64,000 nt of DNA from Bacteroidales bacterium (GTDB lineage Bacteria > Bacteroidota > Bacteroidia > Bacteroidales > CAIWKO01). The notes under the pieces are model-generated. The model was given only the letters and a program-made list of their open reading frames with translations. It was not told where the DNA came from and searched no databases. The position numbers and the translations under genes were made by a program. Location: NCBI GenBank assembly GCA_023228145.1, contig JALOBU010000002.1, positions 134,349 through 198,348 on the forward strand. Direction: 5' to 3'. Within the stretch, counting starts at the first letter, position 1; each line of letters begins with the position of its first letter. Positions 1 through 42,462 of the stretch are shown here, piece by piece.

Positions 1-306
1 GAGGTGACAGCAGCAAAAGTTTTGATTAGTTAAATTATTTCCTCATGTGTAAGCATATTGTTCTAAAATAACCCGGAGCAAACACAGTAGTTATACATTA
101 GATTGCTTACAAAAAAAATAATTTTATCACTTAACCCCAAATTCGTTATTTATAAATTTATTTCGAATGACCGTCATTAGAAAATTAATCATATAAGCAT
201 AAGTGAATCAGCATATTGTAATGACGAATCAACTAAGAAATGAACATCCAAAGTAAAAATGACATTTTCTTAAAAGTTAGATGTTTTATTCTACTTTTTT
301 GAAGTA

Positions 307-549
307 TTGGAATCTGGGTTTGATAATTATACTGTTACCGATGACCACCTGATGCATATTACCGGAATGGGAAAAGGAAAAAATGGAGCGAAATATTACC
401 TGGTGAAAAATTCGTGGGGAACAGAAAAAGGGGAAAAAGGCTATTGGTTTTTATCGGAGGATTTTGTAAAACTCAATACCATTGCCATACTGGTGCATAA
501 AAACGCCATTCCTGCCGGAATAAAAGCAAAACTTGGATTAGCTCAGTAA
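307..549 (+). pseudogene. C-terminal remnant of a papain-superfamily (C1, aminopeptidase-C-like) cysteine peptidase
   Basis: The 80-aa ORF keeps only the distal catalytic blocks (DDHLMHITG His block, YYLVKNSWG Asn/Trp block). The frame is closed upstream by TAA at 271-273. No N-terminal Cys block is present, and 1-306 is AT-rich and ORF-free. Confidence 0.55.
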
Positions 550-593
550 ATTTCTTACTAAAGAGAAATTTTAGTTAATAATTCTATTTCAGG

Positions 594-2432
594 TTAGTTC
601 CCTTGAAATTTATATAGCTCCGCTTTAAGCCCACTGATATAAATCTTAGCTTGATAAGGGTTCCAAATATATACTATTAACTTATCTTTTTTCCTGCTAC
701 GGATTTCAGGGGTTAAATATAGTTTGGTTAAAGTATTCCACTTGCCGGGGTTTAAGGTATCGGGCTTCATTGGAATAGCATAATATTTACAATTCGCTTT
801 TTTATGAATTGTAGATATAATAAGAAATGGAGGCTTTTGAATGTTGTTTGCCGGGCAATAGAAGCAGGTTGTTACTTTTAACCAGAAAAAATCACCATCT
901 AATTTTCTATAAGGTAAAGTGATATCGGGAGAAAATTCTTCAGCAGTATCAATAGTATAATAAAACCTGTTATGAACTGAACTATCTTTAGTGATTTTCT
1001 TTAAAGCTTTACTGCTGAATATTATTTTATCAAAAATGCAATATATTTCTTTTGGAAGCGCATTAAATTTGATTTGAACAGTATCTTCATTTATTCTTGA
1101 ATCGTGTGATAAAAGGCTTAAATCTTTTTCCGAAACATTTGTTTTGCCGAATGTTTTCCAATAATATTCTTTGGTCATTCTATCTCCTTTGAGTATTCCA
1201 TGATTAAATTGCCACAACTGAAATAAATTCAGCAGCAGGACAAACAGGAGTATAAAGACTGACATAATTTTTATCGCTTTACTTTTTACCGAAATCCAAT
1301 CCAGTAAAAAACCAAGAGAAAGCCCAAGGATAATATATAAAGATATAACAGCTCTTTGGCTATATCCATCAGCATACCACCAACAAGACCAGCTTGAAAT
1401 AATATAAACCGAAAGTACTAAGAAAGTAAGTGTCGAAAAAAATAAGCGTTTGTTTTTTTTATACATAAATGGGAATCCGAAAATTGATACAACGGCCAAA
1501 GGCGTGTATAAAAACCAACCTTTACGGTAACTAAATAAAAACTGCCGCAAATAAGGCTCATCAAAGTCAAACCCTTCACAAGGATCCTGATAACTGTAAA
1601 AAATCCATTGTCCCGATGTTATTTTCCAGTAAAGCATTTGCGGAAAAACTATTAAAAAAAATGACGGCATGAGCCATAATAAACGCTTCCAGTAAGTTTT
1701 AATATTGTCTTTTTTCCATAAAATCCATACTGCCACAAAAGTTATACATATTAATTCATTTGGCCTTGATATTGTTATTAATCCTAATAACAGCCCGGTA
1801 ATTACTGCATATTTTATCTTTTTGTTCTCATCCCATTTCATCACATACCATATCAGCATTGCGTTTAACATAAACAGGACATTATGCGGCATAAGTCCTG
1901 ATGATGATGAATACATAAGGTAATTGGTTCCAAAGACAAATAATAATATTACAAAAACAACAATTTTATCGCTTAAAAATTTTTTCAGAATTTTAAGAAA
2001 AAAATACAAGCCGATAAATGCATATATTGTTACACCGAAGCTTATAAAAGCCTGATAAGGCCATGTAAATCCATCTTGCGGGTATGCGAACAATCCGGCA
2101 TAAATATGTGCTAAAAGAAAAAAAGGCGCATAAAATAAAGAAAGCCCCATGGGGTATTTTAACACCCAAAAACCTTCCTGCCCCGGATATGCCTGATAAA
2201 AGGACTCTGTATTTCCGTATTTCTGGATAATTGTTTCAATCCATTTGAGGTCGGTTAAGCCTAAGTCATTGTAAATAAAAGTTGCCGGCAGATACAAATA
2301 ATACCCGAAAACATCCCAGCTTAACGAATCTGAATATGGCGTAAAAAGCCTAATTAACAATATTGCCAAACAAGCTATACAAAAAAACAAGTAAGGCATC
2401 CATGACTTTTTATCCCTCATAATATCATGCAA
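594..2432 (-). CDS. Polytopic membrane protein, GT-C-fold (GT39/ArnT/PMT_2-like) glycosyltransferase candidate
   Basis: 612-aa ORF. The N-terminal ~400 aa hold 10 or more hydrophobic helices and are followed by a ~200-aa soluble C-terminal domain. It is visibly AT-rich compared with core genes. The family assignment rests on architecture only. Confidence 0.4.
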   Translation of the reverse strand: MHDIMRDKKSWMPYLFFCIACLAILLIRLFTPYSDSLSWDVFGYYLYLPATFIYNDLGLTDLKWIETIIQKYGNTESFYQAYPGQEGFWVLKYPMGLSLFYAPFFLLAHIYAGLFAYPQDGFTWPYQAFISFGVTIYAFIGLYFFLKILKKFLSDKIVVFVILLFVFGTNYLMYSSSSGLMPHNVLFMLNAMLIWYVMKWDENKKIKYAVITGLLLGLITISRPNELICITFVAVWILWKKDNIKTYWKRLLWLMPSFFLIVFPQMLYWKITSGQWIFYSYQDPCEGFDFDEPYLRQFLFSYRKGWFLYTPLAVVSIFGFPFMYKKNKRLFFSTLTFLVLSVYIISSWSCWWYADGYSQRAVISLYIILGLSLGFLLDWISVKSKAIKIMSVFILLFVLLLNLFQLWQFNHGILKGDRMTKEYYWKTFGKTNVSEKDLSLLSHDSRINEDTVQIKFNALPKEIYCIFDKIIFSSKALKKITKDSSVHNRFYYTIDTAEEFSPDITLPYRKLDGDFFWLKVTTCFYCPANNIQKPPFLIISTIHKKANCKYYAIPMKPDTLNPGKWNTLTKLYLTPEIRSRKKDKLIVYIWNPYQAKIYISGLKAELYKFQGN

Positions 2433-2545
2433 TAAAACAGTACCTATTAGTGTTTTTTCATCACAAAGATTAAAAGTATCCTATAAAACCCTAATGTAAT
2501 AACTGAAAGTTCAAAAGCAAAAGACATACCCGTATCTCAATAAAA

Positions 2546-3067
2546 TCAATACATTTGCCTTACTTCTTTTTTGATATACTCAATAGCGTTGCTTACGGGC
2601 AGTTTGGCCTGCTGAGACGACATCTCAAATATCATCGAGCCGAGGTCGGCTGCTGTGGCTGTTTCGTTGAGTTTAAGCGCAGCAAGGTTCACCATCTTTG
2701 TCATCTCTTCCTTGGCGGTTCGTGTCAGTTCCCAGGCGGTGGAAGAAATATATATCTGTTGTGATAAATTGTGCTCAAATTCGTCACGAATGCTCTGCAC
2801 CAGGAGGGCCTGCAGTTCTTTGGCGCTCATATCGGATTTGGCAAGGCGTATGATGAGGCTTCCCGGCGAAATGCGTTCCAGGAGAAGAATAATGCGTTCG
2901 TATGCCTGCAGGCGCAAGGGTGTAATCACACCCTGATTGTTCAGCTTGATTTCGAGCATTTTTTTGCGGGTTCCGTTTTCCAGAAAAGCTTTTAATATGT
3001 AATAAGCCGTGATAAAAACCACCACCGAAGGCAGTATATATTTCAGTATGTCGAGAAAATCTTCCAT
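2546..3067 (-). CDS. Hypothetical protein with one N-terminal transmembrane helix
   Basis: 173-aa ORF with core-like GC content. It has an N-terminal hydrophobic segment (ILPSVVVFITAYYILKAF) followed by a helical soluble part. I recognised no motif. Confidence 0.55.
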   Translation of the reverse strand: MEDFLDILKYILPSVVVFITAYYILKAFLENGTRKKMLEIKLNNQGVITPLRLQAYERIILLLERISPGSLIIRLAKSDMSAKELQALLVQSIRDEFEHNLSQQIYISSTAWELTRTAKEEMTKMVNLAALKLNETATAADLGSMIFEMSSQQAKLPVSNAIEYIKKEVRQMY

Positions 3068-3226
3068 AATTAATTATTTATATGCAAAGATACTTTTAAT
3101 TTTTTTTTGAACACACATCATGGACAGTTTTTTAGCCAGAACAAGGGGTTATTGAAATAAAATCGGGATATGATTTTAAACCCAATTCCAATACTTTAAA
3201 AAAAGGCAGAATAAAACATCTAAAGC

Positions 3227-3362
3227 GCACGAATAACGTTGGCGGTATGACCAGTAAGGGATTGCGGAGCTACGTTCCTATCAACCGAGACGAAGGAATG
3301 ATGCGGGTGATGAGCTTCGCATACCACTGAAACCCTTATGGAATATACAAAATGTTACCAAC
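3227..3362. repeat. GC-rich structured element A (AAC...nested hairpins...GTT family)
   Basis: It starts GCACGAATAAC (3227-3237). Three nested helices are visible: 3242-3248/3321-3327, 3264-3271/3313-3320 and 3273-3279/3294-3300. It ends GTTACCAAC (3354-3362), which overlaps the TAA stop of the 177-aa gene. It shares GTAAGGG.TTGC and its end motifs with element B in inverted orientation. Confidence 0.6.
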
Positions 3363-3888
3363 TGGGCTTTGTTATTATTTCTTCATTTATCATTAATAAT
3401 GCACCTTTATAAGCAGTCTTAAATTTATCAAAAGAATTTACAACTTCTGACAAATCACTTAAGTTAAGTGATATATGAGCTTTCGAAATAAGATTGTTAT
3501 TTGTCTTTATATGCAAATGAGGTCCTTGCTTATATCGGCATTCATTTTCTAAAGGGTCTATATGTAATGACAATAATTCTTGATTCACATTGTCTTTATT
3601 TAACATCAATTTGAAGTAAGCTTTTTCTAATGTGAAATTTGAGCCATTATCTTTCCAAACCTCAAAATAAGAAGCATTATATCCCGTTTTCTGAGTTTTA
3701 AAAAACCAATCTTTATGATTCGTACTATGTGGATTAGAACCACCGAAAGCTCCAAAAACAATGAATCCTCTTGGAGATGTTCCAACTTTTGAAGAAACGG
3801 AGTTTCCATTTCTAGAAAGAGGTTGCATTAGTTTCCTAATTTCATTGCTTCTATGATGTATCTTCATATTTTCTAAAACAATAGGCAT
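3355..3888 (-). CDS. Hypothetical 177-aa protein, partner of the methyltransferase (candidate effector/nuclease, unassigned family)
   Basis: The ATG at 3888 lies 6 nt after the TAA of the upstream methyltransferase gene. It has the same AT-rich composition. I recognised no family. A His-containing segment LHIDPLENECRYKQGPHLHI is present. Confidence 0.7.
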   Translation of the reverse strand: MPIVLENMKIHHRSNEIRKLMQPLSRNGNSVSSKVGTSPRGFIVFGAFGGSNPHSTNHKDWFFKTQKTGYNASYFEVWKDNGSNFTLEKAYFKLMLNKDNVNQELLSLHIDPLENECRYKQGPHLHIKTNNNLISKAHISLNLSDLSEVVNSFDKFKTAYKGALLMINEEIITKPSW

Positions 3889-3894
3889 ATTATC

Positions 3895-6516
3895 TTAAAT
3901 GTTGAGAAAAGATTTTTCAGTTGAAGTTAAGTTATATAATTCTGCTACAGTCGAATCAATTTGTTTCTCTAAACCTAAAGACTCAAATTCATTACTAATA
4001 ATTCGCTTTTTGACAAGGTTTAAAACATCTTGAACAAGTTTTCTTTTATTCGTATCCTCCTGAAAAGGAGAAGGTATTGGCAATCCTTTAATATATGTTG
4101 GCTCAAGCATAGCAAAACCATTTTGGTATTTTGGAGCATGGGATATTAGATACCATAGACAAACTGTTGAATTTAAAATGCCTGTAAAATAATATAGTAG
4201 GTCAGTGTTGTCATATTCTTTTTTTAATACTAAAAATGGAGAGCGTGAGATTGCAAATTTTCCTTCAATATCAATATTGAATTTAGGTGTAAATATTAAA
4301 TGTGGCGTTAAAATCTTAGGGACTAACATAAATTTGGGCGATCTCGGTCTATTAGGCATCCACCATTTTATATTACCTTTTTTAACTTCATTTCTTTTTA
4401 ATAAATCAGATTCAAATTTTTTAAGATGTCTATATGTTTTAGGGTAATTATTCAGAAGTTCTTCCTCTGAAATCTTTGAGTCATTTATAAACGGGTAGAA
4501 AAAATATTCTTCAACTTCTTTCCTTGGTGAAAAGGAATTCATTTTTCTGTCTTCTAAGTATGGAACATAGATTGACTCTTCACCTTTGGGAATTTGATTT
4601 TTTGAAAGTGTAAATGCATCAACATGACCCGAGGCAAATCCTGTTCTAACATCAAAAAAATCTTTTATATTTGGATTTTTTGATATTTTGTTTTTAAGAC
4701 TTAATTCTGTTGGAGGTAATAAGAACCACTTGTTTCTATTAAAAAAATTATGATCTACCTCATAAACCGAAAAGTTATCATTTTCAACATAATCTTTTTT
4801 CAAAATATGATGTATAGCTTGTCCTGTATTATCTTGAATCTTTGAGATAATTGCATTGGATTTTATTATTGATTTTTTAAAAATCAATAATATGGGATAA
4901 ACTCCAGCTTCTTCAAATATTCTCTGTCTATTGTCAGAAAGATCTACAATACATTCTATCGAGCAAGTATCAAATAACTCTTTGCGTATACTCTGACAGC
5001 TATCTGTTGTAAGAAATGTATTTGGTAGGACAAAACAACCATAGCCACCTTCTTTTAGTGTTTGTATAGCAATTTTGACAAATGCTATGTACAGATCAGT
5101 TTTACCAAAACTCAACTCGCCAAGAAATTCCTTCAATGATTTTCTTGTAATTGCATCTAGGGAGTTGTATTTAATATATGGAGGATTTGATATAATAATA
5201 TCTACACTTTCTTCATATTTTGACTCCTTGAAAAATGCAAGAGAATCATCATTTACTATTTGTATTTTATCTTTTGGCAATTCGCCATATGACACTAAAT
5301 GTAATAATGATAATGAAAGATTTGCAGCATTACATGCTGTTTTGTTCTTATCGACAGCAATGATATTCTTGAATATATTATTATCTAAACCTTCTTTATG
5401 GTTAGTTTCAATTTGTCTTTCAAGAAAAGTTCTAATAAAAATTCCTGAACCAACCGCAGGCTCTAAAATTGTTAAATTCTTCGAATAAATATCTTTAATG
5501 TTGAATTCAAGATATTTAGTAAAAAATCTAGCAATAAACTGTGGCGTATAATAACTCCCTGAATTTTTATTGAATTTTTCTTCAGGGATAGGAGAAAAGA
5601 AACTTAATTGTTCAGTTTCTTTTATTTCCAATATTGAAACATATTTCTCATAAAGTCTGCTTAAAGCATGTTTGGAAATAATTGAGAAATCATATTCATA
5701 ATGGGAATACTTATTTTGGTAAAAGTCTTGAAATAATTGATATAGTGTTCTAGAATTAAGTTTATCGAATACTTTTAAAATATTAAAATCAATCAAATCA
5801 TTTGGAATATCTTTTATTTTATATTGTTCAAGAAAATTAAGAATAAGATTTGAATATTTTTCAATTTTTTGAGATTCAAGAATCCTATTTAAATTATTTT
5901 TATTGAAAGCTCCTGGTGATAAATTATAATTGTAATCTTCAATAGCTCTGAGAAAAATAATTGAATTAAAAAAAGATGATAATTGTTCATTGTTAACAGT
6001 GTTGTCTAATTCTGACGAAATTATTCGTTTCCAAAATGAAATTGTGTCTATAATGGTATCATCAAGAGTTTTATAAATAGGTTTTATTCGTCTCTCCTGA
6101 AGTAACTCTGAATAAGTACTACTTTTTAAATTTATTTCATCTTCGTTACTTCCAAAATGTATAAGATTATTTTCTCCTAATCTGTTATGGGTTCCACAAG
6201 CATTAAGACGATCTATTGATATATGTAAATCAACAAGATTATTATAAGAGACACTAAAAAGATTTAACTTTTCTATTTCAGTCAGTTTAGTGAATAAATA
6301 TTTTGATTGTATAAATGAAATTACCGCAGAATTTTCAAGACCATGTTCAACAAATAAATGTCCAGTTGTAATACTATTTTTATTTTTATCTTCAATAATA
6401 TCACTCGGATACCAGCCTAAATAATTTGAAAAATTTTCAAGTTCTTTGATTAAGCCTTTATCTCCATTCCAAGGTGAAATTAGTTTTCTTAATATGTTTG
6501 TATTAAAAGAGTCCAT
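3895..6516 (-). CDS. N6-adenine DNA methyltransferase, Eco57I/type IIG-like architecture with unassigned N-terminal domain
   Basis: 873 aa. Motifs are GSYYTPQFIARF (aa 320-331), ILEPAVGSGIF (SAM motif I, aa 350-360) and IIISNPPY (motif IV, aa 441-447, NPPY at nt 5176-5187). FDVRTGFASG (aa 621-630) marks a TaqI_C-like target-recognition part. Residues 1-315 are unassigned. Confidence 0.8.
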   Translation of the reverse strand: MDSFNTNILRKLISPWNGDKGLIKELENFSNYLGWYPSDIIEDKNKNSITTGHLFVEHGLENSAVISFIQSKYLFTKLTEIEKLNLFSVSYNNLVDLHISIDRLNACGTHNRLGENNLIHFGSNEDEINLKSSTYSELLQERRIKPIYKTLDDTIIDTISFWKRIISSELDNTVNNEQLSSFFNSIIFLRAIEDYNYNLSPGAFNKNNLNRILESQKIEKYSNLILNFLEQYKIKDIPNDLIDFNILKVFDKLNSRTLYQLFQDFYQNKYSHYEYDFSIISKHALSRLYEKYVSILEIKETEQLSFFSPIPEEKFNKNSGSYYTPQFIARFFTKYLEFNIKDIYSKNLTILEPAVGSGIFIRTFLERQIETNHKEGLDNNIFKNIIAVDKNKTACNAANLSLSLLHLVSYGELPKDKIQIVNDDSLAFFKESKYEESVDIIISNPPYIKYNSLDAITRKSLKEFLGELSFGKTDLYIAFVKIAIQTLKEGGYGCFVLPNTFLTTDSCQSIRKELFDTCSIECIVDLSDNRQRIFEEAGVYPILLIFKKSIIKSNAIISKIQDNTGQAIHHILKKDYVENDNFSVYEVDHNFFNRNKWFLLPPTELSLKNKISKNPNIKDFFDVRTGFASGHVDAFTLSKNQIPKGEESIYVPYLEDRKMNSFSPRKEVEEYFFYPFINDSKISEEELLNNYPKTYRHLKKFESDLLKRNEVKKGNIKWWMPNRPRSPKFMLVPKILTPHLIFTPKFNIDIEGKFAISRSPFLVLKKEYDNTDLLYYFTGILNSTVCLWYLISHAPKYQNGFAMLEPTYIKGLPIPSPFQEDTNKRKLVQDVLNLVKKRIISNEFESLGLEKQIDSTVAELYNLTSTEKSFLNI

Positions 6517-6536
6517 TTAGTTTTTTTTATAAAACC

Positions 6537-6544
6537 CAAAGATA
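6537..6544 (-). promoter_or_regulatory. Bacteroidota -7 box (TAnnTTTG) for the methyltransferase operon
   Basis: Minus strand reads TATCTTTG, 21-28 nt upstream of the ATG at 6516. Confidence 0.4.
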
Positions 6545-6594
6545 ATCTAAATTTTATTCCTCCAATTTATCTGCGAATGCACTTTTTTTGCCTT

Positions 6595-6732
6595 GTTGGT
6601 AACGAACCGGTGTGGCAAGTCGGCGGCGGTGATAGAAGTACTTTCCTGTCCACCAAACCGACCGCTAAATAAAAGCACTGCACTGTCTGCAAACCCTTAC
6701 CCGCCGCTGCTTGCCACACAAAGTTATATGCA
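6595..6732. repeat. GC-rich structured element B (AAC...long hairpin...GTT family)
   Basis: GTTGGTAAC (6595-6603) is followed by a 10-bp stem 6610-6619/6710-6719 and a 7-bp stem 6623-6629/6701-6707 enclosing ~70 nt. It ends GTTATATGCA (6723-6732). Its reverse complement aligns with element A at the head (GCA..ATAAC), at GTAAGGG.TTGC and at the tail (GTTACCAAC). Confidence 0.65.
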
Positions 6733-6780
6733 TGTTATAAGTTTTTATGTCATTAATCGTATCAGAGAATTAAAATAATA

Positions 6781-6811
6781 AACAGGGGAGATTAATAATA
6801 AGTCCCCTGTT
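6781..6811 (-). terminator. Hairpin terminator downstream of the PLDc_N gene
   Basis: 9-bp stem AACAGGGGA/TCCCCTGTT with a 13-nt loop, followed by a T/A-rich tract on the minus strand, 20 nt after the stop at 6831. Confidence 0.5.
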
Positions 6812-6830
6812 CTATTAGTGAAAACAAAAG

Positions 6831-7049
6831 TCAATGTGCGACTTGTACTTTTTTCCGATTTACTTCTACTATATACTTAATGATGTAAATGAATGCACCT
6901 AAAAATGGAATAAACAGTACAAACAAAGACCACAATATTTTGTGTGCTTGTTTTTCTTCATGCTTAAATATAAACACAAAACTCAAAACAACTACTATTA
7001 ATAGTGTTATTAATAGTATTATTATTATTGCTGGATGAATTAGTACCAT
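6831..7049 (-). CDS. Small membrane protein with PLDc_N-type (phospholipase-D/nuclease N-terminal) motif
   Basis: 72 aa with two hydrophobic helices. ILWSLFVLFIPFLGAFIYII fits the W..v...P.lG...Y signature of PLDc_N. Confidence 0.6.
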   Translation of the reverse strand: MVLIHPAIIIILLITLLIVVVLSFVFIFKHEEKQAHKILWSLFVLFIPFLGAFIYIIKYIVEVNRKKVQVAH

Positions 7050-7056
7050 GATTTTA

Positions 7057-7809
7057 TTAATTTGAGTAAAAATTTGCTGTGCACATACATAAAAGTCCTT
7101 CCCAAATACAAGAAATTGTTACACCTGTACCGAACCAACCAGGATGAGCAGCTAAAATGGCTTTATAATCATGATTACACCAATACTCAGAGTCGGAATG
7201 GTTCAAATGAAAACCAACTGCTGTACCTTGATATTTATATTTAAGACCAAAATTTGGTAATAAATCGTGAACTAAACCTTGCATAACAAATTCATGAAGT
7301 AGAGTTGATAATATGATAAAATCGCTACAAATTTTTACAGGGGCATCTTCGAATTCAAATTTGTTGATATTTGTTTCCTGTCCCTCAAGAGTCACAAAAA
7401 AGTCTTTTGTTACGAAATTATATTTAACATCTGTAGAACAATCTTCGCCATATATTATATACGAATCGTTCGTCTTTATGATTTTATAAACTTTTTTATC
7501 TAAGAGATACTTGTCTGCGTTGACTATTAATTCACCATCGCCCGAAAATACCTGAAATGTAATATGATCATCCATTATTTCCAAAACATCAATTTCCTTA
7601 ATGTTTAAGGGTAAAAGGTATTCTGAAAACTTTGTCAATTTGTACTTATCATAGCCTTTCAAAATAAGGTTATCAAACAAATTGTCTTGTGGAGAAATAT
7701 TCTGAGAATTTGTCGTTGGTTGTGTAACTTCGGTCGATTTCTTACATGAATTAAAAGAAAATGCCACACAAATAATTAGCAATAAAACAATTAATTTTTT
7801 CATTTTCAT
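7057..7809 (-). CDS. Hypothetical lipoprotein with Cys-rich C-terminus
   Basis: 250 aa. It has a lipoprotein signal MKMKKLIVLLLIICVAFSFNSC. The C-terminal part is WCNHDYK...ISCIWEGLLCMCTANF. It is AT-rich and lies 7 nt upstream of the next gene. Confidence 0.7.
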   Translation of the reverse strand: MKMKKLIVLLLIICVAFSFNSCKKSTEVTQPTTNSQNISPQDNLFDNLILKGYDKYKLTKFSEYLLPLNIKEIDVLEIMDDHITFQVFSGDGELIVNADKYLLDKKVYKIIKTNDSYIIYGEDCSTDVKYNFVTKDFFVTLEGQETNINKFEFEDAPVKICSDFIILSTLLHEFVMQGLVHDLLPNFGLKYKYQGTAVGFHLNHSDSEYWCNHDYKAILAAHPGWFGTGVTISCIWEGLLCMCTANFYSN

Positions 7810-7825
7810 AAATATTTGAGTTTAA

Positions 7826-7833
7826 CAAAAGTA
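7826..7833 (-). promoter_or_regulatory. Bacteroidota -7 box (TAnnTTTG) for the lipoprotein/PLDc_N pair
   Basis: Minus strand reads TACTTTTG, 17-24 nt upstream of the ATG at 7809. Confidence 0.4.
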
Positions 7834-7962
7834 CATTTTTTCTAATCAGTCAGCAAATTTATTGTGCTGGTTACTCTATTTTTTCATGTCGATTTTCACT
7901 TGCACATTCTCGACTTCAGGTGGTCAGCCTGCAATAACCGGTCTTTGTTTTTTTTAAATAGT

Positions 7963-8028
7963 TGCATATAACGCCTGTGTTAGCGCATTGCGTTTATTTT
8001 TACTTTAGCTCTTCTGTAGCTGCAATCC
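7963..8028. repeat. Element C, truncated member of the A/B family
   Basis: TGCATATAAC (7963-7972) is the exact reverse complement of GTTATATGCA at the B end (6723-6732). GTAGCTGCAATCC (8016-8028) is close to the reverse complement of GGATTGCGGAGCTAC in A (3259-3273). I found no complete stem. Confidence 0.45.
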
Positions 8029-8200
8029 GTTTTTTGTGTTTTAAATTATTATTTAATAATGAATTGCTTTTTCTATTTTCCGTTTGTAATTAATTGTAAG
8101 CATTTGTAATCGTCTCAACAAATATAAAAAAAACTTATCAAATAAGTGTTTGTAATATATTTTTTTGTTTATCCTGCAATATATAGGCGGCCGGGTTTAA

Positions 8201-8372
8201 TCAGGAGGCTGTCTCAAAAGTCAATATTTGCCAGTATCTAACCTTAGTGTGCCTTAGTGTGTACTTGGTGTCCGCCGCGGCGGACTTTGTGGTTCAACTA
8301 CTTATATTTACCACGAAGTAACTCAAAGGGGTGCACAAAGGCGCACAAAGGACTTTTGAGACAGCCTCCTGA
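8201..8372. mobile_element. MITE-like palindromic element (172 bp)
   Basis: Perfect 22-bp terminal inverted repeats TCAGGAGGCTGTCTCAAAAGTC (8201-8222) and GACTTTTGAGACAGCCTCCTGA (8351-8372). There is a central 16-bp palindrome GTCCGCCGCGGCGGAC (8270-8285). Tandem decamers CCTTAGTGTG x2 are mirrored by GCACAAAGG x2. It has no coding capacity. Confidence 0.65.
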
Positions 8373-8448
8373 CTTGCACAAAAAAATAAAAAATCTCAGG
8401 CATGAGTATTTGCACAGAATTACTAATTTTGAGCAAAAATTATTTACT

Positions 8449-9651
8449 ATGAATTATTTATCCAACAGAATCAACAATTTATCCGAGTCGGAAACCCTTG
8501 CCATGACACAGAAAAGCCGCGAGCTCGCCGCACAGGGTTTCGATGTAATCAATCTCAGCATTGGCGAACCGGACTTCAATACGCCGGAATTTATAAAAAA
8601 TTCAGCCAAAGATGCCATTGACAAAAACTTTACCCACTACCCTCCCGTACCCGGCTATCCGGAATTGCGGCAGGCAATATGCAAAAAACTAAAACGCGAC
8701 AACAACCTTGAATACATCCCCGAGCAGATCGTTGTTTCCACAGGAGCCAAACATTCTATTGCCAATGTGATGCTGGCGCTGGTAAACCCCGGCGATGAAG
8801 TCATCGTGCCGGCGCCCTACTGGGTTTCCTACAAAGAAATAGTGAAACTTGCCGAAGGAAAAGCGGTTTATATCCAAGGCTCTATAGAAAGCAATTTTAA
8901 AGTCAGCCCGCAGCAAATAGAAGAAGCCATAACGGATAAAACCAAGGTGTTTATTTTCAGCAGCCCGTGCAACCCCACCGGCTCGGTTTATACCAAAGAA
9001 GAACTGCGCGCTTTTGCCTCTATATTTGCAAAGCATAAAAACATTTTTATCATCTCCGATGAAATCTATGAATATATCAATTTCCTCGGCAAGCACGAAA
9101 GCATCGCCCAGTTTCCCGAAATTAAAGACCAGGTCATCGTTGTAAACGGTGTTTCAAAAGGCTATGCCATGACGGGCTGGCGTATCGGGTACATTGCCGC
9201 TCCAAAACCCATTGCCAAGGCATGCAGCAAGCTTCAGGGGCAGGTTACTTCGGGAGCGTGCTCCATAGCGCAGAAAGCTTCTTTTACCGCTATTGACAGC
9301 GACCCGCAAAGCATACCTGAGTTCAAACTGATGCTCGATGCTTTCCGCGAAAGGCGCGACCTGCTGCTCAGCCTGCTGAAAGAAATTCCCGGCATAGGCA
9401 CCAACGTACCCGACGGGGCATTTTACGTTTTTATGGACGTAAAAAATTATTTCGGAAAATCCAACGGCACAACCACCATCAAAGGCAGCGACGACCTGAG
9501 CATGCACCTTCTTAACAACGCCCATATTGCCATGGTGCCCGGCACCGCCTTCGGCGACCCAAATTGCCTGCGGTTTTCTTACGCTACTTCCAAGGAAAAA
9601 ATAATTGAAGCCGTGAAGCGTTTAAAAGATGCGCTGGAAAAATTCAAATAA
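8449..9651 (+). CDS. aspC: Aspartate/aromatic aminotransferase, class I/II PLP enzyme
   Basis: I place the start at MNYLSNRINNLSESETLAM. Motifs are INLSIGEPDFNTP, SSPCNPTG and NGVSKGYAMTGWRIGY (PLP lysine). The ORF-track start at 8257 runs through the MITE and is rejected. Confidence 0.85.
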   Translation: MNYLSNRINNLSESETLAMTQKSRELAAQGFDVINLSIGEPDFNTPEFIKNSAKDAIDKNFTHYPPVPGYPELRQAICKKLKRDNNLEYIPEQIVVSTGAKHSIANVMLALVNPGDEVIVPAPYWVSYKEIVKLAEGKAVYIQGSIESNFKVSPQQIEEAITDKTKVFIFSSPCNPTGSVYTKEELRAFASIFAKHKNIFIISDEIYEYINFLGKHESIAQFPEIKDQVIVVNGVSKGYAMTGWRIGYIAAPKPIAKACSKLQGQVTSGACSIAQKASFTAIDSDPQSIPEFKLMLDAFRERRDLLLSLLKEIPGIGTNVPDGAFYVFMDVKNYFGKSNGTTTIKGSDDLSMHLLNNAHIAMVPGTAFGDPNCLRFSYATSKEKIIEAVKRLKDALEKFK

Positions 9652-9663
9652 AATAATTGAACA

Positions 9664-10317
9664 ATGTCTATCACTTTAACTTTTTTAATTTTTATCATTG
9701 TCACCATCAGTACTCTCAGCCTCGGATTGATACTGTTTATTCTGGGGCTCATACAGAAAAAAACCGGGCAATGGGTTGCAGGAGTTATCATGTTCATTTT
9801 GTCCATCATCATTGCTGTAATATGGTTTGTTGGAATAATCGTTAAAATACCTAAAAACTTTGAAAGCAAGGTAAAATATCATTCTGATGAGTATGAGCAA
9901 TACGACAACTACAACAATGACACAGAAAGTTATAATGACGAAGACAACTATATCGTTGACGATAAAAATAATTCTGACAAAATTTCTGGTTTTATTCAGG
10001 ATGTTGATAAAAGCCTTGTTTATATAAAAATAGTTCCCGAACCGGCGCTGAAAGATTACGGCATCAAACTTAACAAAATTGATACGTATTCATCAAAAGA
10101 TGGCAGCAGCAAAATGATTCCTTTGAATATTTCTTTCACAGATAAATTTAAAGGGGAATTGCAGTTGATACTTTATTCCTCCGGCAGGGAAGAACTTGGG
10201 AAAAGCTTGGTTCATATCGGCCAGGAAAAAAATACTACTTTTACTGTCAGATTTATTTTCGAGGATGAAGCCAATTTCTTAAAAACCGATTATGCACTTT
10301 TAAAATCAAGTGACTGA
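9664..10317 (+). CDS. Hypothetical membrane protein (2 TM, acidic N/D/Y-rich linker)
   Basis: 217-aa ORF. Its stop overlaps the next start (ATGA). It has two N-terminal hydrophobic helices and no recognised motif. Confidence 0.6.
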   Translation: MSITLTFLIFIIVTISTLSLGLILFILGLIQKKTGQWVAGVIMFILSIIIAVIWFVGIIVKIPKNFESKVKYHSDEYEQYDNYNNDTESYNDEDNYIVDDKNNSDKISGFIQDVDKSLVYIKIVPEPALKDYGIKLNKIDTYSSKDGSSKMIPLNISFTDKFKGELQLILYSSGREELGKSLVHIGQEKNTTFTVRFIFEDEANFLKTDYALLKSSD

Positions 10318-11333
10318 TGTTATCCCTAGACAGAAATTCTGCAGCAAAATTATTTCATGACTTTACGGGCATGAAAGCCCTGGTGATTGGAGATGTGATG
10401 CTCGATTCATACATCTGGGGCCATGTTGAACGAATTTCACCCGAAGCTCCTGTGCCTGTAGTAAGTGTCAGTAAGCGCGAAAACCGTCTGGGCGGGGCAG
10501 CCAATGTAGTGCTAAACCTGCAAGCCTTGGGGGCTGTACCCATCTTGTGTTCAGTTACAGGAAATGACTCCCGCTGTGATGATTTTTGCAAATTACTCGA
10601 ACAACATGATATTTCTCATGCAGGCATACTGAAAAATGAACAGCGCAGCACAACCACAAAATTCCGTATCATTGGCAATAACTATCAGATGCTGCGAGTG
10701 GACGAAGAAACCACACAAGTGCTTAATCAGGATGAAAGCCGTAACTTCTTCAACCTGATAGAACGCATTGTTTTGGCTGAAAATCCGCAGGTTATTATTT
10801 TTGAAGATTATGACAAAGGTGTTATAAACCATGCGCTGATACAATGGGTAGTTGAACTTGCCGAGAAAAAGAAAATTCCTTTGGTAGTTGACCCTAAAAA
10901 GAAAAATTTTTTACATTATAAACGTGTGAGCCTGTTTAAACCCAATTTTACAGAGCTTTGCGAAGGATTGAAGATAGAAAACGTACAGAAAACCCCCGAA
11001 AGCCTGCTAAGGATATGTTCTGCTTTTCAGTACCAGCATGACATTCCTAACATGATGCTCACTCTATCTGAAAAAGGAATGTTCATTTCTTCTGCTGACA
11101 AAATAGGTAAATACACTGGAGAAATGATACCCGCAAGAGTTCGCAATATTGCCGATGTTTCGGGTGCCGGCGATACCGTTATCTCCATTGCAGCCTTATG
11201 CACTGCTCTAAAACTTCCTCTTTACGATACAGCTTTCATAGCGAATATCGGCGGAGGACTAGTGTGTGAACACACAGGTGTTGTTCCTGTTAACAAAGAA
11301 AAACTTAAGGAAGAAGTTTTGTCATTGATGTAA
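10317..11333 (+). CDS. PfkB-family sugar kinase, RfaE domain-I-like (D-glycero-beta-D-manno-heptose-7-phosphate kinase)
   Basis: VIGDVMLDSYIWGHVERISPEAPVPVV, NRLGGAANV and C-terminal DVSGAGDT motifs, typical of RfaE/HldE kinase domains. Confidence 0.75.
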   Translation: MLSLDRNSAAKLFHDFTGMKALVIGDVMLDSYIWGHVERISPEAPVPVVSVSKRENRLGGAANVVLNLQALGAVPILCSVTGNDSRCDDFCKLLEQHDISHAGILKNEQRSTTTKFRIIGNNYQMLRVDEETTQVLNQDESRNFFNLIERIVLAENPQVIIFEDYDKGVINHALIQWVVELAEKKKIPLVVDPKKKNFLHYKRVSLFKPNFTELCEGLKIENVQKTPESLLRICSAFQYQHDIPNMMLTLSEKGMFISSADKIGKYTGEMIPARVRNIADVSGAGDTVISIAALCTALKLPLYDTAFIANIGGGLVCEHTGVVPVNKEKLKEEVLSLM

Positions 11334-11356
11334 CAAATGCTCTTCATTTTTTCAAA

Positions 11357-12067
11357 ATGAATGCTTCCCGTTTCAAAACAAAAAATGATGAAATAGCCGG
11401 CCTTTTCGACAGCATTGCGGGGCATTACGACTTTCTGAACCATTTCCTTTCTTTCGGCATTGATAAACTTTGGAGAAAAAAAATCATCCGAATGATAAGC
11501 AAGGAACATCCTGACAGCATACTGGACATTGCTACCGGAACTTCGGACCTTGCCATAGCTGCAGCTACAAAAATCCAGGGTGTGCAAATTACAGGGATAG
11601 ATATTTCGGAAAAAATGCTTGGCATTGCCAAAGAAAAAATTCGAGAAAAACACCTCGAAGACAGGATAACATTGCAAAAAAAATCTGCCGAAAGTATGGA
11701 TTTTGCAGACAACAACTTCGACAATGTGATGGTTGCATTTGGGGTACGAAATTTTGAAGACCTAAACAAAGGCCTTCAACAGATGCTGCGTGTGGTAAAA
11801 CCCGGAAGGAAAATTTTTATACTGGAGTTTTCAAAGCCACAGGGGTTCATAAAACCTTTTTTTAATTTTTACTTCCGATACCTGTTGCCTTTTATCGGGA
11901 AGTTAATATCAGGCAACAGCAATGCCTACCGATATCTTCACCGAAGTGCTATCAGTTTCCCTGACAGAAAATATTTCACGGATATACTCACTCAACAAGG
12001 GTTTACAAAGACATACTGCCACTATTTGAGCAGTGGGATTGCCACCATTTATGTCGGAATTAAGTAA
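11357..12067 (+). CDS. ubiE: Demethylmenaquinone/ubiquinone methyltransferase
   Basis: YDFLNHFLSFGIDKLWRKK, SAM motif ILDIATGTSDL and VAFGVRNF, characteristic of UbiE/MenG. Confidence 0.85.
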   Translation: MNASRFKTKNDEIAGLFDSIAGHYDFLNHFLSFGIDKLWRKKIIRMISKEHPDSILDIATGTSDLAIAAATKIQGVQITGIDISEKMLGIAKEKIREKHLEDRITLQKKSAESMDFADNNFDNVMVAFGVRNFEDLNKGLQQMLRVVKPGRKIFILEFSKPQGFIKPFFNFYFRYLLPFIGKLISGNSNAYRYLHRSAISFPDRKYFTDILTQQGFTKTYCHYLSSGIATIYVGIK

Positions 12068-12133
12068 AAAATAGTATAATTTTGCAATAGATTTTAATAT
12101 CGCACGTTATTTTAGGTTCAGAAAGCGTTTGTA

Positions 12134-12865
12134 TTGAAAACGATAATAAAATATTTTTCCCTCATCACATTTGTTTTTCTTCTTTGTGGTGGTTCATCTT
12201 TTGCACAGTACCGCGAGCACAGGTTTGTTGAAAACCTGCCCAAGTTCGATAAACGCCGTTATCATTTCGGCTTTTTGCTGGGGATGAACTATATGGATTT
12301 TGCTTTGAAAAGCGCCAAAGACCTATCACCTTACGATTCGCTCACAGCAATAACCACCAAGCCAGACTTTGGTTTTGACATCGGCATCGTTTCCAGTCTG
12401 ACACTCACCAAGTATCTCAGCCTGCGCTTTGTGCCCACACTTTCTTTTGGGAACCGTACCGTTGAATATACTTTCCTGCACAATGACTCCATCACATATA
12501 AACAAAGCAAACGCATCGAGTCAACTTTCATGTTTTTTCCTTTATACCTTAAATACCAGTCAAAACGCATAGGGAATTTCAGAGCTTACGTTATTGGCGG
12601 AGCCAAATACGCGATAGATATGGCATCGCAGGCAAAGAAAAAGAATAAGGAAGGCGAGGCCCCTATAAAACTCAGGCGCAGCGATGTACTTATTGATGTC
12701 GGCACCGGGCTTGATTTTTTCCTGCCCTACTTTAAATTCGGCATAGAACTTAAAATGTCTTATGGTCTACCCAACCTTCTCATCCCCGAAAACACCATCT
12801 ATACCAACAGCATTCGCCGCCTCGGTTCAAAACTATTCCAGCTCTCTCTTACTTTTGAAGGATAA
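12134..12865 (+). CDS. porT: Outer-membrane beta-barrel protein, PorT/SprT-like (T9SS-associated)
   Basis: TTG start, signal peptide ...SSFAQ, alternating beta-strand pattern, and C-terminal LSLTFEG. A position directly after ubiE is, as I recall, the arrangement in other Bacteroidota. Confidence 0.5.
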   Translation: MKTIIKYFSLITFVFLLCGGSSFAQYREHRFVENLPKFDKRRYHFGFLLGMNYMDFALKSAKDLSPYDSLTAITTKPDFGFDIGIVSSLTLTKYLSLRFVPTLSFGNRTVEYTFLHNDSITYKQSKRIESTFMFFPLYLKYQSKRIGNFRAYVIGGAKYAIDMASQAKKKNKEGEAPIKLRRSDVLIDVGTGLDFFLPYFKFGIELKMSYGLPNLLIPENTIYTNSIRRLGSKLFQLSLTFEG

Positions 12866-12881
12866 GTTTTTTCATACTGTT

Positions 12882-12927
12882 ATGAGCCGGAGTACGGCTT
12901 TAATCCGTACTCCGGCTCATCAGTTTT
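12882..12927 (+). terminator. Perfect 16-bp hairpin after porT-like gene
   Basis: ATGAGCCGGAGTACGG (12882-12897) pairs with CCGTACTCCGGCTCAT (12905-12920), followed by CAGTTTTG. Confidence 0.6.
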
Positions 12928-12980
12928 GAAGTTTCGCCTACATTGATTATTTTTGTCCTACTCATAAATACTTATTTATC

Positions 12981-15900
12981 ATGAAACGTATTACATTTTC
13001 CATTTTGCTCACTTTTGTATTTGCCGACTTTGCTTTAAATGCTCAGAATGAAATGAGGCTGCTGCGTTTTCCTGCGATACACGCCAACACCATTGTTTTC
13101 TCCTATGCCGGAGATTTATACTCGGTGGATAAAAAGGGAGGCACCGCCCGCAAACTTACCAGCGACATAGGTTACGAGATGTTTGCACGCTTTTCGCCCG
13201 ATGGCAATAACATAGCCTTTACAGCCCAATACGACGGCAACACCGAAATTTATACGATGCCCGCCGCCGGCGGACTGCCCGTTAGGCAGACATATACCGC
13301 CACACTCGGCAGGGATGACCTCTCCGACCGTATGGGCCCCAACAACATTGTCATGACATGGAAAGACAATCAAACCATTATTTTCAGATCAAGAATGAAG
13401 TCTTTCAACGATTTCAAAGGACAGCTGTTCAGCATAAATACAACAGATGGAAAAATGGAAGAATTGCCCTTGCCATGCGGAGGATTTTGCTCTTATGCTC
13501 CTGACAAAACCAAATTAGCATACAATCGTGTATTCCGCGAATTCAGAACCTGGAAATATTATAAAGGCGGCATGGCCGACGATATCTGGATATACGATTT
13601 TAAAGAAAAAACCACTGTAAATATTACCAATAACCCTGCTCAAGATATTTTCCCCATGTGGCATGGCGATATTATCTATTTCCTCTCCGACCGCGACCGT
13701 ATCATGAATCTTTTTAGCTATAATATTACTAGTAAAGAAACTAAAAAACTTACGGACTTTACCGAATTCGACATGAAATTCCCGTCCCTTGGCGACAGCT
13801 CTATTGTCTTTGAAAATGGAGGTTACATTTATATTTTTGACTTCAAAACACAAAAGTCAACAAAGGTAAATATTCAAATAGCCGACGACCTGAATACAGG
13901 CCGCAATGAGATGAAAGACGCCTTCAAAAACATTACCGGCTACGACATTTCCCCTGACGGTAAACGGCTTGTTTTCAACGGGCGCGGCGATGTGTTTTCT
14001 GTGCCTGCAAAAAGCGGTATCACACGTAACCTGACACAAAGTTCCGGAATTCATGACCGCAATGCCGCCTGGTCGCCCGATGGAAAATATATTGCTTACA
14101 TTTCGGATGCAAGCGGGGAAGATGAAATATATATTGTTGCACAGGACGGAACATCAGAACCTGTTAAACTCACTACGAAGTCCGATACATACAAATACCA
14201 GCCTATATGGTCGCCTGACAGTAAGAAATTACTTTGGTCTGATAACATGTTAAGACTGCAATATGTTGACATAGAGACAAAAAATGTAACGCAGGTTGAC
14301 AAAGCCACTGACGGAGAATTCAGGGAATTTGACTGGTCGCCCGACAGCAAATGGATTGCTTACGCCAGACCTGACAGAAGCAGTGAGATAAAAATCTACT
14401 TATACGAGCTGGCTTCTTCAAAAAAACATGCTGTTACCGATGGATGGTACGACTGCGGCGAGCCGGTTTTCAGCTCTGACGGGAAATACCTGTTTTTTGC
14501 TTCTTCACGCGACTTTAATCCTATTTACAGCTGGACGGAATGGAACCACGCATATACAAACATGAATAAAATTTATATGCTTACCCTTGCCAAAACAACG
14601 CCCTCCCCTTTTCAGCCAACTGATGATGAAGTGAAAATAAGCAGCGAAACTAAAGAAAGTGAATCCAAAGAAAATGACAGCAAAACAGTTGAAGTAAAAA
14701 TTGATATTGACGGCATCTCTGACCGGATTATTGCCTTTCCCGTAAGTGCGGGCAATTACTGGAATATCAGCAGTGCCGGCAATATGGTTTATTATTGCCG
14801 CACCACAACATCCGAGCCAAGCGCAGCACTTATAGCCTTTGACCTGAAAGAAAAAAAGGAAACCAACCTGGGGGCATACAGAAATTACATCCTATCTTAT
14901 GACAAAAAGAAAATAGTAATAAGCGATAAAGGAAAGTACGCAGTAATTGACCTGCCGAAATCAAAAATTGAAATAAAAGACTATGTGGACTTGTCGAACA
15001 TGAAGGTATGGATAAACCTTAAGGACGAATGGAAACAGATTTTCACAGAATCATGGCGGCAGATGCGAGATTTCTTTTACGACCCCGGTATGCATGGCTT
15101 GGACTGGAAAGCCATATACAAAAAATACGAGCCCCTTACAGTTTATGTAAACCACCGTGCCGACCTTACCTATATCATTGGGGAAATGATAGGAGAACTT
15201 AATGTGGGGCATGCTTATACAGGTGGAGGTGAAAAACCCGAGCCTGAGAAAATAAAAATTGGATTACTCGGCGCTGAAATAGTAAAAGACAATTCGGGAT
15301 ATTACCAGATTAATAAAATATTACACGGTGAAAACTGGAACGATAATACCCGTTCGCCACTGACCGAAGTCGGAGTGGATGTGAAGGAAGGTGATTTCAT
15401 TATTGCTGTTAACGGAAAATCTGTTTTAAATTCAAAAAACATTTATGAATTGCTGATCAATACTGCCGGACAACAGGTGGAACTCACGGTAAGCACTACT
15501 GCTTCGGCACAGGGTGCCCGCAAAGTTATCGTTATCCCCGTCGAAGACGAATCGGGCCTTTACTATTACAACTGGGTGCAAAACAACATAAAAAAGGTTA
15601 ACGAAGCCACAGACGGCAAAGTGGGATATATCCACATCCCCGACATGAGCGTTGGAGGGCTTAACGAATTTGTAAAACATTTTTATCCCCAGCTCAGCAA
15701 ACAAGCCCTGATTATTGACGACCGTGGCAACGGTGGCGGCAATGTTTCGCCTATGATCATCGAGCGCCTGAACCGCGAATTGGTGTATATGAAAATGTCG
15801 CGCAATACCAGGCAAAACACAGCAGGCATTGCTCAGCAGTATGGGCCAAAAATATGTTTGATCGACCAGTATTCTGCTTCTGATGGTGATTTATTTCCCT

Positions 15901-41106: not shown

Positions 41107-41124
41107 AATTTCAAGCTGATGTTG

Positions 41125-41197
41125 CACGGGTGGTAGGAGTCGAACCCACAGCCTACGGTTTTGGAGACCGCCACTCTACCAATTGAGCTACACCCGT
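41125..41197 (-). tRNA. trnW: tRNA-Trp (anticodon CCA)
   Basis: Cloverleaf folded by hand. Acceptor ACGGGTG/CACCCGT, anticodon loop CTCCAAA, T-loop TTCGACT. Confidence 0.92.
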
Positions 41198-41274
41198 TTA
41201 AATTCACATAACAAGCTTTGCATGACAATTCATGTTACCCTGAATTTTTCAGCATAACATATTGTTTTTTAATT

Positions 41275-42462
41275 TTAATCCAGAATTTCAATTACTTGCC
41301 CAGCTCCTACTGTTCTTCCTCCTTCACGAATAGCAAAGTGCAGATTGAGGTTCATGGCGATTTCCGAAATTAATTTCACTTCAATATCAAGGTTATCCCC
41401 GGGCAATACCATTTCCACACCGTTGATAAGATTAACTTCTCCGGTAACGTCAGTAGTTCTGAAATAAAACTGCGGGCGGTATTTGTTATGGAAAGGTGTA
41501 TGACGCCCTCCTTCTTCCTTTTTCAGAATATAAACTTTAGCCTTGAAATGTTTATGAGGTTTCACTGAACCGGGTTTTGCAACAACCATACCGCGGCAAA
41601 TCTGATCCTTATCAATACCTCTGAGCAACAGACCGGTATTGTCGCCGGCTTCACCCCTGTCAAGAATTTTGCGGAACATTTCCACACCTGTAACCACTGA
41701 TTTCATCTTTTCAGCACCAAGGCCGATGATTTCAACAGGGTCGCCTGAGTTGATAACTCCTGTTTCAACTCTTCCGGTTGCAACGGTACCGCGGCCGGTA
41801 ATAGAAAATACGTCTTCAACGGGCATAAGGAAATCCTTGTCTATTTCACGGGGAGGTAATGGTATATAACTGTCGCAAGCGTCCATAAGTTCCACAACTT
41901 TATCAACCCATTTAGGTTCCAGGTTTAATCCGCCTAATGCAGAGCCTCTGATAACGGGAGTATTTTCACCGTCAAATCCGTAGAATGTAAGCCTGTCTCT
42001 GATTTCCATTTCCACGATTTCCAAAAGTTCTTCGTCATCAACAAGGTCAACTTTGTTCATGAAAACAACAATCTTTGGAACACCAACCTGGCGTGCCAAC
42101 AGAATATGTTCATTGGTCTGAGGCATAGGGCCATCAGTAGCAGCAACAACAAGGATTGCGCCGTCCATCTGGGCAGCACCGGTAACCATGTTTTTAATAT
42201 AGTCGGCATGTCCGGGGCAGTCAACGTGAGCATAATGCCTGTTAGCTGTTGTATACTCAATATGAGAGGTATTAATGGTAATACCTCTTTCTTTTTCTTC
42301 AGGAGCATTGTCGATTGAATCAAATGATCTGAATTCTGACCAGCCTTTTTGCGACAGTACCAGAGTGATAGCTGCGGTTAAGGTAGTCTTACCATGGTCG
42401 ATGTGACCTATTGTCCCAATGTTCACGTGGGGTTTGGAACGATCGTACTTTTCTTTTGCCAT
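41275..42462 (-). CDS. tuf: Elongation factor Tu
   Basis: [17 protein letters not shown] and NKVD. 395 aa. Confidence 0.98.

Follow-up and report, generated by a model that had tools for sequence, protein, structure and literature searches.

Known attC sites, the recombination sites of integron gene cassettes, are about 57–141 nt long, and clusters of attC sites without an integrase are termed CALINs. Integrons have been reported as rare in Bacteroidota (PMC9024848; PMC8618304), while in Vibrio chromosomal integrons the Toutatis system (tutA/tutB) combines a methyltransferase and a small protein in a single cassette (10.1101/2024.07.02.601686). In this work, we describe a locus in a 64,000-nt stretch of a Bacteroidales genome (contig JALOBU010000002.1, positions 134,349 to 198,348; "the window" below means this whole stretch), in which an N6-adenine DNA methyltransferase gene and a small partner gene lie between two attC-like sites. 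We consider it probable that window positions 3237–6602 are an integron-type mobile gene cassette carrying a two-gene type II-like restriction-modification module.

The likeness to integron cassettes covers the sites themselves (imperfect palindromes of ~130–145 nt, with AAC and GTT triplets as their core, a variable loop, and a spacer and bulged base that may be equivalent to those of canonical sites), the G/TT crossover (a slash marks the crossover point throughout), the 5' end of the cassette, which is complementary to its own R'' box, and the stop codon inside R'', as well as the co-oriented arrays of mostly 0.5–0.9-kb cassettes with defence genes among their cargo. As in sedentary chromosomal integrons, attC sites are homogeneous within a host (97% within L001, one of the loci compared with the window, which carry L numbers). 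Unlike known integrons, the system sits in a Bacteroidota host and includes some large multi-gene cassettes (3.4 kb in the window, 7 kb for a Dnd cassette in L144), the window array has no integrase, and the recombinases that head two related arrays depart from the integron type, as detailed below. With type II systems that have a gamma-class N6-methyladenine (m6A) methyltransferase (M.BseCI, M.TaqI, CamA-like), the gene pair shares motif I, NPPY, a TaqI_C-like domain, a small adjacent co-transcribed gene, the mobile module and the occurrence in defence islands, but it adds a conserved 315-aa N-terminal region and a partner outside the known endonuclease families and folds. Type IIG/IIL enzymes (Eco57I, MmeI, DrdV) and BREX PglX have the same Eco57I-type methyltransferase domain (PF07669) and a similar size, whereas here no N-terminal PD-(D/E)XK domain is recognisable and a separate conserved partner gene is present. 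Toutatis, which we compared by description with no sequence relationship expected, likewise has a methyltransferase and a small unknown protein per cassette, but differs in gene order, sizes and host phylum.

The original prediction, made from the letters of the window alone, described a tightly coupled, horizontally mobile pair of minus-strand genes in very AT-rich DNA, and this description stands: both open reading frames (ORFs), their coordinates and their 6-nt spacing are exact, and the G+C counts are reproduced (9 of 60 nt at 5761–5820 vs 31 of 60 at 8521–8580). Overall, G+C content is 27.8% in the two ORFs, 38.2% in the window and 47–52% in the flanking elements. The central features are the following:

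3235–3362, plus strand: attC-like site A (covariance-model match 3236–3363, 81 bits; predicted fold −39 kcal/mol, z −3.2)
3237–6602, minus strand: cassette 2, 3366 nt, with the gene pair (bounded by box-to-box identity to the copy in L001 and by the box rule described below)
3355–3888, minus strand: ORF of the 177-aa partner
3895–6516, minus strand: ORF of the 873-aa N6-adenine DNA methyltransferase
6601–6731, plus strand: attC-like site B, belonging to the upstream cassette 1 (covariance-model match 6590–6732, 94 bits; predicted fold z −3.3)

On the minus strand, TATCTTTG at 6537–6544 lies 20 nt 5' of the methyltransferase ATG and matches TAnnTTTG, which we take, from Bacteroides promoters, to be the Bacteroidota −7 consensus; it is possibly a promoter borne by the cassette itself.

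A perfect 9-bp inverted repeat was also predicted to bracket the pair, with two GC-rich hairpin elements homologous in inverted orientation outside it. The repeat is there (GTTACCAAC at 3354–3362, overlapping the TAA stop, and GTTGGTAAC at 6595–6603), and so are both hairpins, but their orientation was misread: a covariance model built from five element copies matches A and B on the plus strand only, with no reverse-strand match in the window. A and B are homologous in direct orientation and share on the plus strand the aligned landmarks ..AACG.., TCCTRTC and ACAnnnGTTA; the error probably arose because each hairpin resembles itself in both orientations. Repeats do bracket the pair, then, but as direct-orientation integron-type attC sites and not as inverted copies around a transposon-like unit. 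Neither Rfam (E ≤ 1 over positions 1–14000) nor ARAGORN (transfer RNA and transfer-messenger RNA) gave a match on A or B, so they are not a known RNA gene, and a finder of direct and inverted repeats returned only AT-rich noise inside the cassette.

On its own, the 9-bp repeat is weak evidence because chance alone predicts ~0.5 exact occurrences of a 9-mer in the window; four copies are observed, two of them unrelated. These extra exact copies of GTTACCAAC, at 22999–23007 (plus strand) and 60244–60252 (minus strand), have no attC-like element nearby and look like chance. The repeat gains its significance from a rule that holds across the family of elements: read in the direction of the ORFs, a unit starts with G/TTnnnnnn, and the element after its ORFs begins with the exact counterpart in reverse complement, nnnnnnAAC. 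Of 40 adjacent element pairs, 30 have 9-nt boxes that are fully complementary in this way, as against 83 of 5000 random pairs (1.7%) and 4 of 111 comparisons between the two boxes of one element. The ten failures mostly concern longer intervals of about 1.2–3.1 kb, in which an overlooked element or an insertion is the probable cause, while cassettes obeying the rule are mostly 470–900 nt long. The boxes themselves vary by cassette, as in L001 (TTACCGCCA, TTAGCAGCA, TTACCAAC, TTGGCAAC, TTAACGGC and TTAGCCATA). A transposon or invertible segment, which we had considered for the inverted repeat, was dropped on these grounds, as the boxes differ from cassette to cassette and obey the attC rule.

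The elements (128–145 nt across the hairpins tested) form a family found in Bacteroidota, in Prolixibacteraceae and other Marinilabiliales. In L001, 11 copies match the covariance model; they share one strand, and each lies just downstream of at least one ORF. A metagenome scan with the conserved core gave 120 further loci, and the 132 model matches used below come from 100 sources, namely the window, five earlier loci and 94 of the 120 new ones. A scan of genome contigs with the 20-mer of the R' end gave 24 loci, mostly chance, of which only L024, L005, L018 and L007 are true family members; the species of the window is absent from these loci. In the alignment, 93.5% of stem cells are paired and 27 of 32 pairs show compensatory changes, values that none of 500 shuffles reaches and that collapse in slid controls. 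The element ends, AACG...TGTT, are nearly invariant among the 132 copies, and a bulged T is conserved in 111 of them. An asymmetric spacer and three near-invariant G.T pairs lie on the strand antisense to the ORFs, which corresponds to the "bottom" strand, the recombining strand of an integron attC. The bulged T and the spacer may be counterparts of the extrahelical bases and unpaired central spacer by which canonical attC sites select a strand.

At the window, site A, written antisense to the ORFs, is the recombination site of the methyltransferase cassette. Its crossover triplet is AAC at 3235–3237, that is, G/TT on the ORF strand between 3237 and 3236, and its box GTTACCAAC at 3354–3362 corresponds to R'' in reverse complement and provides the TAA stop of the partner. 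In site B, the crossover triplet AAC at 6601–6603 marks the start of cassette 2, and GTTATATGC at 6723–6731 is the reverse complement of the R'' of cassette 1. On the ORF strand, cassette 2 reads TTACCAAC..., methyltransferase, partner, GTTGGTAAC, attC A and ...CAACG; its core is split, with G/TTACCAAC at the 5' end and GTTGGTAAC opening its own attC, and the R'' box at the head of this attC, GTTGGTAA, is the reverse complement of the initial 8 nt of the cassette (TTACCAAC). In our reading, the 9-bp inverted repeat is therefore the R'/R'' core of the attC that belongs to this cassette, split between its two ends; this is a signature of circular permutation, because excision and integration at the G/TT of a folded attC produce such a pattern. 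A version of A with a deleted R' box, suggested by the model aligning TTGGCGGTA to the box, was ruled out by comparison with a sister strain (L029), which shows a canonical A with AAC at 3235–3237.

Strain-to-strain comparison shows the cassettes being replaced. In L029, the flanks are 99% identical to those of the window, and another attC and other genes lie between the same junctions, ...ACACAGGCG/TT and ...AAC(C)G/TTATTCGTGCGC; homology stops at ..gaataac/g in site A. L029 positions 157–5435, with a 970-aa CHU_C protein, a C_GCAxxG protein, a class V aminotransferase and an attC-like site of their own, take the place of window positions 3238–7969. Conversely, a 90.7% identical copy of the gene-pair cassette sits in the large array of L001, with homology running from 3343 to 6604, box to box, and with GC-rich elements at both ends that show same-strand alignment to A and B. 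Crossover junctions are at G/TT in the window, L029, L001 and L066. Taken with the family-wide rule, the reading of the elements as integron-type attC sites that bound cassettes is strongly supported, and we hold it with high confidence.

By its motifs and alignments, the methyltransferase is assigned to the gamma class of type II m6A enzymes. Motif I (EPAVGSG) begins at residue 352 and the predicted NPPY was found at residue 444, within a core at residues 316–551 that matches N6_Mtase/Eco57I methyltransferase families (Pfam PF02384, PF07669, PF12950); a weak Pfam match to TaqI_C at residues 715–814 points to a TaqI_C-like target-recognition domain. PADLOC types the protein as MTase_II (E 4e-40), and residues 317–846 align with the complete stand-alone enzymes M.BseCI (7qw5, E 7e-27) and CamA. 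The likeness to Eco57I/type IIG or BREX-PglX enzymes that had been proposed narrows to the shared Eco57I-type core: the PglX model NF033452 reaches 56 of the 500 bits set as its cutoff, the MAD2 model 33 of 720 bits, an Alw26I-type model falls far below its cutoff, and the cassette, which holds two genes only, contains no other BREX genes.

The remainder of the protein, residues 1–315, is a family-specific N-terminal region, of which ~1–180 form an unknown domain and ~180–315 resemble the HsdM-N helical region. It matches no family and no PDB entry, and, as noted at the outset, no clear nuclease domain is detectable in the methyltransferase by family or PDB searches. Conserved among orthologues are PSD39, H53, E57-H58-G59, SYNNLVD96-x-H98 and R112. 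By hhalign, the N-domain is related neither to the partner family nor to the N-terminus of an MmeI-like enzyme in L002, and a homologue search with it returned only truncated "N-6 DNA methylase" fragments.

The partner, called an orphan in the original prediction, matches no restriction endonuclease family or any other family that we searched. It is basic (isoelectric point 9.4) and belongs to a family that a word-indexed search resolved into 8 clusters and an exhaustive profile search into 440 clusters at 50% identity, all of 113–224 aa and mostly of 170–205 aa; in none of the 440 is there a Pfam domain or a name beyond "hypothetical protein". Y74, E76, L108, H109, D111, P112, K120, P123, H124 and H138 are invariant and H126 nearly so, and among them E76, H109, D111, H124, H126 and H138 make up a conserved Glu/His/Asp cluster. 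An AlphaFold model from a 55-sequence alignment is confident (predicted local distance difference test, pLDDT, 92.7; predicted template-modelling score, pTM, 0.88) and supersedes an earlier run on 9 sequences (pLDDT 67.7); it predicts a mostly beta fold that closes with a beta-hairpin plus helices.

Foldseek found no match for this model in PDB (best E 0.02, template-modelling (TM) score 0.23), and over PDB and BFVD together the best E values were 0.01–0.02 with TM scores below 0.3. Sequence searches, Pfam (including DUF1524), NCBIfam, PHROGs, a PDB search with the 9-sequence profile and tblastn against plasmids gave no match either, and no endonuclease of a recognised family (PD-(D/E)XK, HNH, GIY-YIG, PLD, half-pipe) was identified by sequence or fold searches. 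The sole pointer to a nuclease is a weak PADLOC match that links residues 57–150 to the C-terminal region of SspE (E 1.1e-3, 15.6 bits), the nuclease part of that His-Me (DUF1524) protein.

What ties the partner to the methyltransferase is strict synteny. The check for co-occurrence, proposed with the prediction, found a methyltransferase of 873–901 aa immediately upstream of the partner in 10 of 10 contexts, at ~25–90% identity; the two ORFs overlap by up to 8 nt or lie up to 6 nt apart, and a frameshift interrupts one copy, which comes from a nanopore assembly. Among the neighbouring genes and elements are AbiE, an MmeI-like enzyme, nSTAND3, RelB/ParE, HepT/MNT, a Rep3 plasmid and a conjugative element, and also plain housekeeping genes, which are expected around an autonomous mobile module. 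Among the contexts examined, only the window and L001 copies lie between attC sites, and in both the partner ORF is lengthened by PSW into the R'' box, the source of its stop codon. Other cassettes of related arrays carry defence systems, including Dnd, nSTAND3 and a 1091-aa protein with an Eco57I-type methyltransferase domain.

These observations suggest the following model. A tyrosine recombinase supplied in trans would cut the conserved G/TT of two sites, and the cassette would be excised as a circle and then reinserted, which would explain why TTACCAAC is complementary to the cassette's own R'' box GTTGGTAA. Once in place, the 873-aa enzyme would methylate adenine at N6 within a target that its TaqI_C-like domain recognises, and the translationally coupled 177-aa basic protein, a putative restriction nuclease, would use its conserved Glu/His/Asp residues as a metal site to cut unmethylated incoming DNA. 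The family-specific N-terminal domain of the methyltransferase may dock or control the partner. Of the mechanisms considered, restriction-modification in which the partner is a new nuclease has the most support, and synteny, context and conserved residues incline us towards it. The anatomy of the locus, the box rule, the replacement of cassettes between strains, the pairing of the two genes and the family of the methyltransferase are observed; the cleavage of DNA by the partner, the role in defence and the identity of the acting recombinase are inferred.

No integrase lies near the window array and no tyrosine recombinase within 35 kb of it, so the array is CALIN-like. The sole tyrosine recombinase of the window (43323–44249, minus strand), 35 kb away, is XerC-like: it scores 310 bits on TIGR02224, just under the cutoff, and 88 bits on TIGR02249 (cutoff 265), and it is 24–27% identical to the recombinases at the heads of related arrays. 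It adjoins a cluster of Thr-Tyr-Gly-Thr and Trp transfer RNA genes at 41124–42878.

Two arrays have a recombinase at their head. In L066, this is a 380-aa tyrosine recombinase (Phage_int_SAM_4 plus Phage_integrase) whose stop lies ~95 nt before cacaacG/TTATGCAC, the first G/TT junction; the attC of the first cassette begins GTGCATAAC and is followed by four further attC-like sites. The array of L144 is headed by a recombinase 56% identical to it. Both genes are co-oriented with the cassettes and encode ~105 extra N-terminal residues, points in which they differ from integron integrases. On TIGR02249, they score 201 (L066) and 189 bits (L144) in two stretches, below the cutoff, the printed stretch of L066 ending at model position 178 and that of L144 starting at 239; on the XerA/integron-integrase model, L066 reaches 219.8 against a cutoff of 220. 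BLASTP of a head recombinase against an IntI1 probe sequence, which served only to locate recombinase genes that were then judged by NCBIfam and Pfam, leaves gaps over roughly IntI1 residues 209–234 and 253–266. These gaps fall in the region of the insertion specific to integron integrases, which the head recombinases lack.

The first cassette of L144 (860–7425), 7 kb long, encodes a DndC-like PAPS reductase, a DndD-like ATPase, a DndE-helicase fusion and a Schlafen/AlbA_2 protein; its cargo is a defence system of the phosphorothioation type. A second group of tyrosine recombinases, of ~300 aa and each paired with an IS91-family Y2 transposase (Y2_Tnp plus Zn_Tnp_IS91), directly adjoins attC-like sites at L089 2–2028, L116 878–2978 and L154 1187–3227.

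Several observations weigh against a restriction-modification cassette in an integron-type array. No nuclease family or fold was found for the partner despite a model of pLDDT 92.7, so that its catalysis is a guess, and the uncharacterised N-terminal domain of the methyltransferase might be the effector instead. An integron integrase is absent from the window, and the array-head recombinases of its relatives lie below the integron-integrase cutoff and are without the IntI-specific insertion. Finally, the cassette is conserved between the window and L001 but its attC body is not: window 3236–3363 and L001 8526–8667 are 48% identical, as are any two family members, while the R boxes of this shared cassette are identical and the attCs of different L001 cassettes (copies at 8526 and 970) are 97% identical. 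Such a pattern is not predicted by a simple integron model and points to replaceable attC bodies, with the R'' box as the point of exchange. With the R boxes kept, a swap of attC bodies would imply recombination at R'' as well as at R', or another route of attC renewal; recombination may, for instance, occasionally use the other strand.

Where the nuclease would lie is the main point on which the rival readings of the gene pair part. In a type IIG-like or type IIB-like enzyme, it would occupy the N-terminal ~180 residues of the methyltransferase, leaving the 177-aa protein an accessory role as activator, specificity or assembly factor, or regulator. This main rival draws on the strong conservation of acidic and histidine residues in the N-domain (those listed above, from PSD39 to R112, with D96-x-H98 among them), on the position of the domain, which mirrors the N-terminal nuclease of type IIG enzymes, on PADLOC REase_MTase_IIG matches over the methyltransferase and C-terminal part, and on a partner without a nuclease signature. 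It is nonetheless unlikely in our estimate: the N-domain has no Pfam or PDB match and no evident D...(D/E)xK motif, it is unlike the MmeI-like N-terminus of L002, and the methyltransferase core and C-terminal part alone match complete stand-alone methyltransferases such as M.BseCI and CamA. Somewhat less likely again is that the pair does not restrict DNA at all and is an epigenetic or addiction module or follows another defence logic, with the partner reading or erasing m6A or acting as a toxin checked by the methyltransferase. The unmatched fold and a His/Asp/Glu cluster that could equally serve a non-nuclease metalloenzyme are compatible with this, and toxin-antitoxin-like cassettes are abundant in integron arrays (10.1101/2024.07.02.601686); yet strict synteny with a methyltransferase equipped with a target-recognition domain of its own, the basic isoelectric point, and neighbourhoods of defence islands and mobile elements fit restriction-modification best.

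For the flanking hairpins, the corresponding alternative is that they are ordinary intergenic repeats incidental to the pair: repetitive extragenic palindromes or bacterial interspersed mosaic elements (REP/BIME-like), miniature inverted-repeat transposable elements (MITEs) or terminators. Such repeats would account for GC-rich hairpins at gene ends, for the missing Rfam match and for the lack of an integrase beside them in the window. They would leave unexplained the cassette-specific reverse-complementary boxes in 30 of 40 pairs, at a random rate of 1.7%, the strain-to-strain replacement exactly at G/TT and the co-oriented arrays headed by a dedicated recombinase, and we regard this already disfavoured reading as very improbable. 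The integron-type cassette with a restriction-modification pair keeps our preference. That two linked novelties hold together, with the 177-aa family as a new-fold nuclease or another new kind of effector working only alongside an N-extended gamma-class methyltransferase, and with an undescribed integron-like system of Bacteroidota whose recombinase would be without the hallmark domain and whose attC bodies would be swappable, is possible but doubtful.

The gene-pair cassette is the second of a two-cassette array. Its remaining features are as follows:

3237–7971, minus strand: two-cassette array, between an aminotransferase gene and a DUF7935 gene
6603–7971, minus strand: cassette 1, 1369 nt, G+C 29.6%; starts G/TTATATGCAAC (reverse complement of 7961–7972) and ends with attC B
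6831–7049, minus strand: cassette 1 ORF for a 72-aa PLDc_N membrane protein
7057–7809, minus strand: cassette 1 ORF for a 250-aa protein without a matching family, whose signal sequence is lipoprotein-like (..SFNSC..)
7970–7992, minus strand: attI-like head-of-array junction, with the conserved flank ...GCGCTAACACAGGCG and then the crossover

In cassette 1, the 5' box GTTATATGC and the R'' box GCATATAAC are exact reverse complements, so that both window cassettes obey the box rule, and the head-of-array junction is also used by the different cassettes of the sister strain.

In the L001 array, a ~300-nt repeat, 99% identical between 2083–2382 and 14489–14788, starts exactly at attC crossovers (..CCG/TTATGGTGCAGCG..); it is perhaps a small mobile element with attC sites as its target, and both crossovers belong to cassettes that break the box rule. 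An insertion sequence with an rve-family transposase lies inside the same array at 11054–12235, adjoining a cassette with mismatched boxes.

The gene pair is a clonable candidate for a new restriction-nuclease family, whose ~440 clusters at 50% identity are unannotated and strictly linked to one methyltransferase architecture. Defence-loaded, integron-type cassette arrays exist in Marinilabiliales-type Bacteroidota, where such arrays are little described; an incomplete literature search found no paper describing them. Surveys based on integrases could under-count such arrays, because the two recovered head recombinases would fail the standard criteria for an integron integrase. Finally, one gene pair joined to two attC bodies at identical R boxes bears on how cassettes and their attC sites originate and are renewed.

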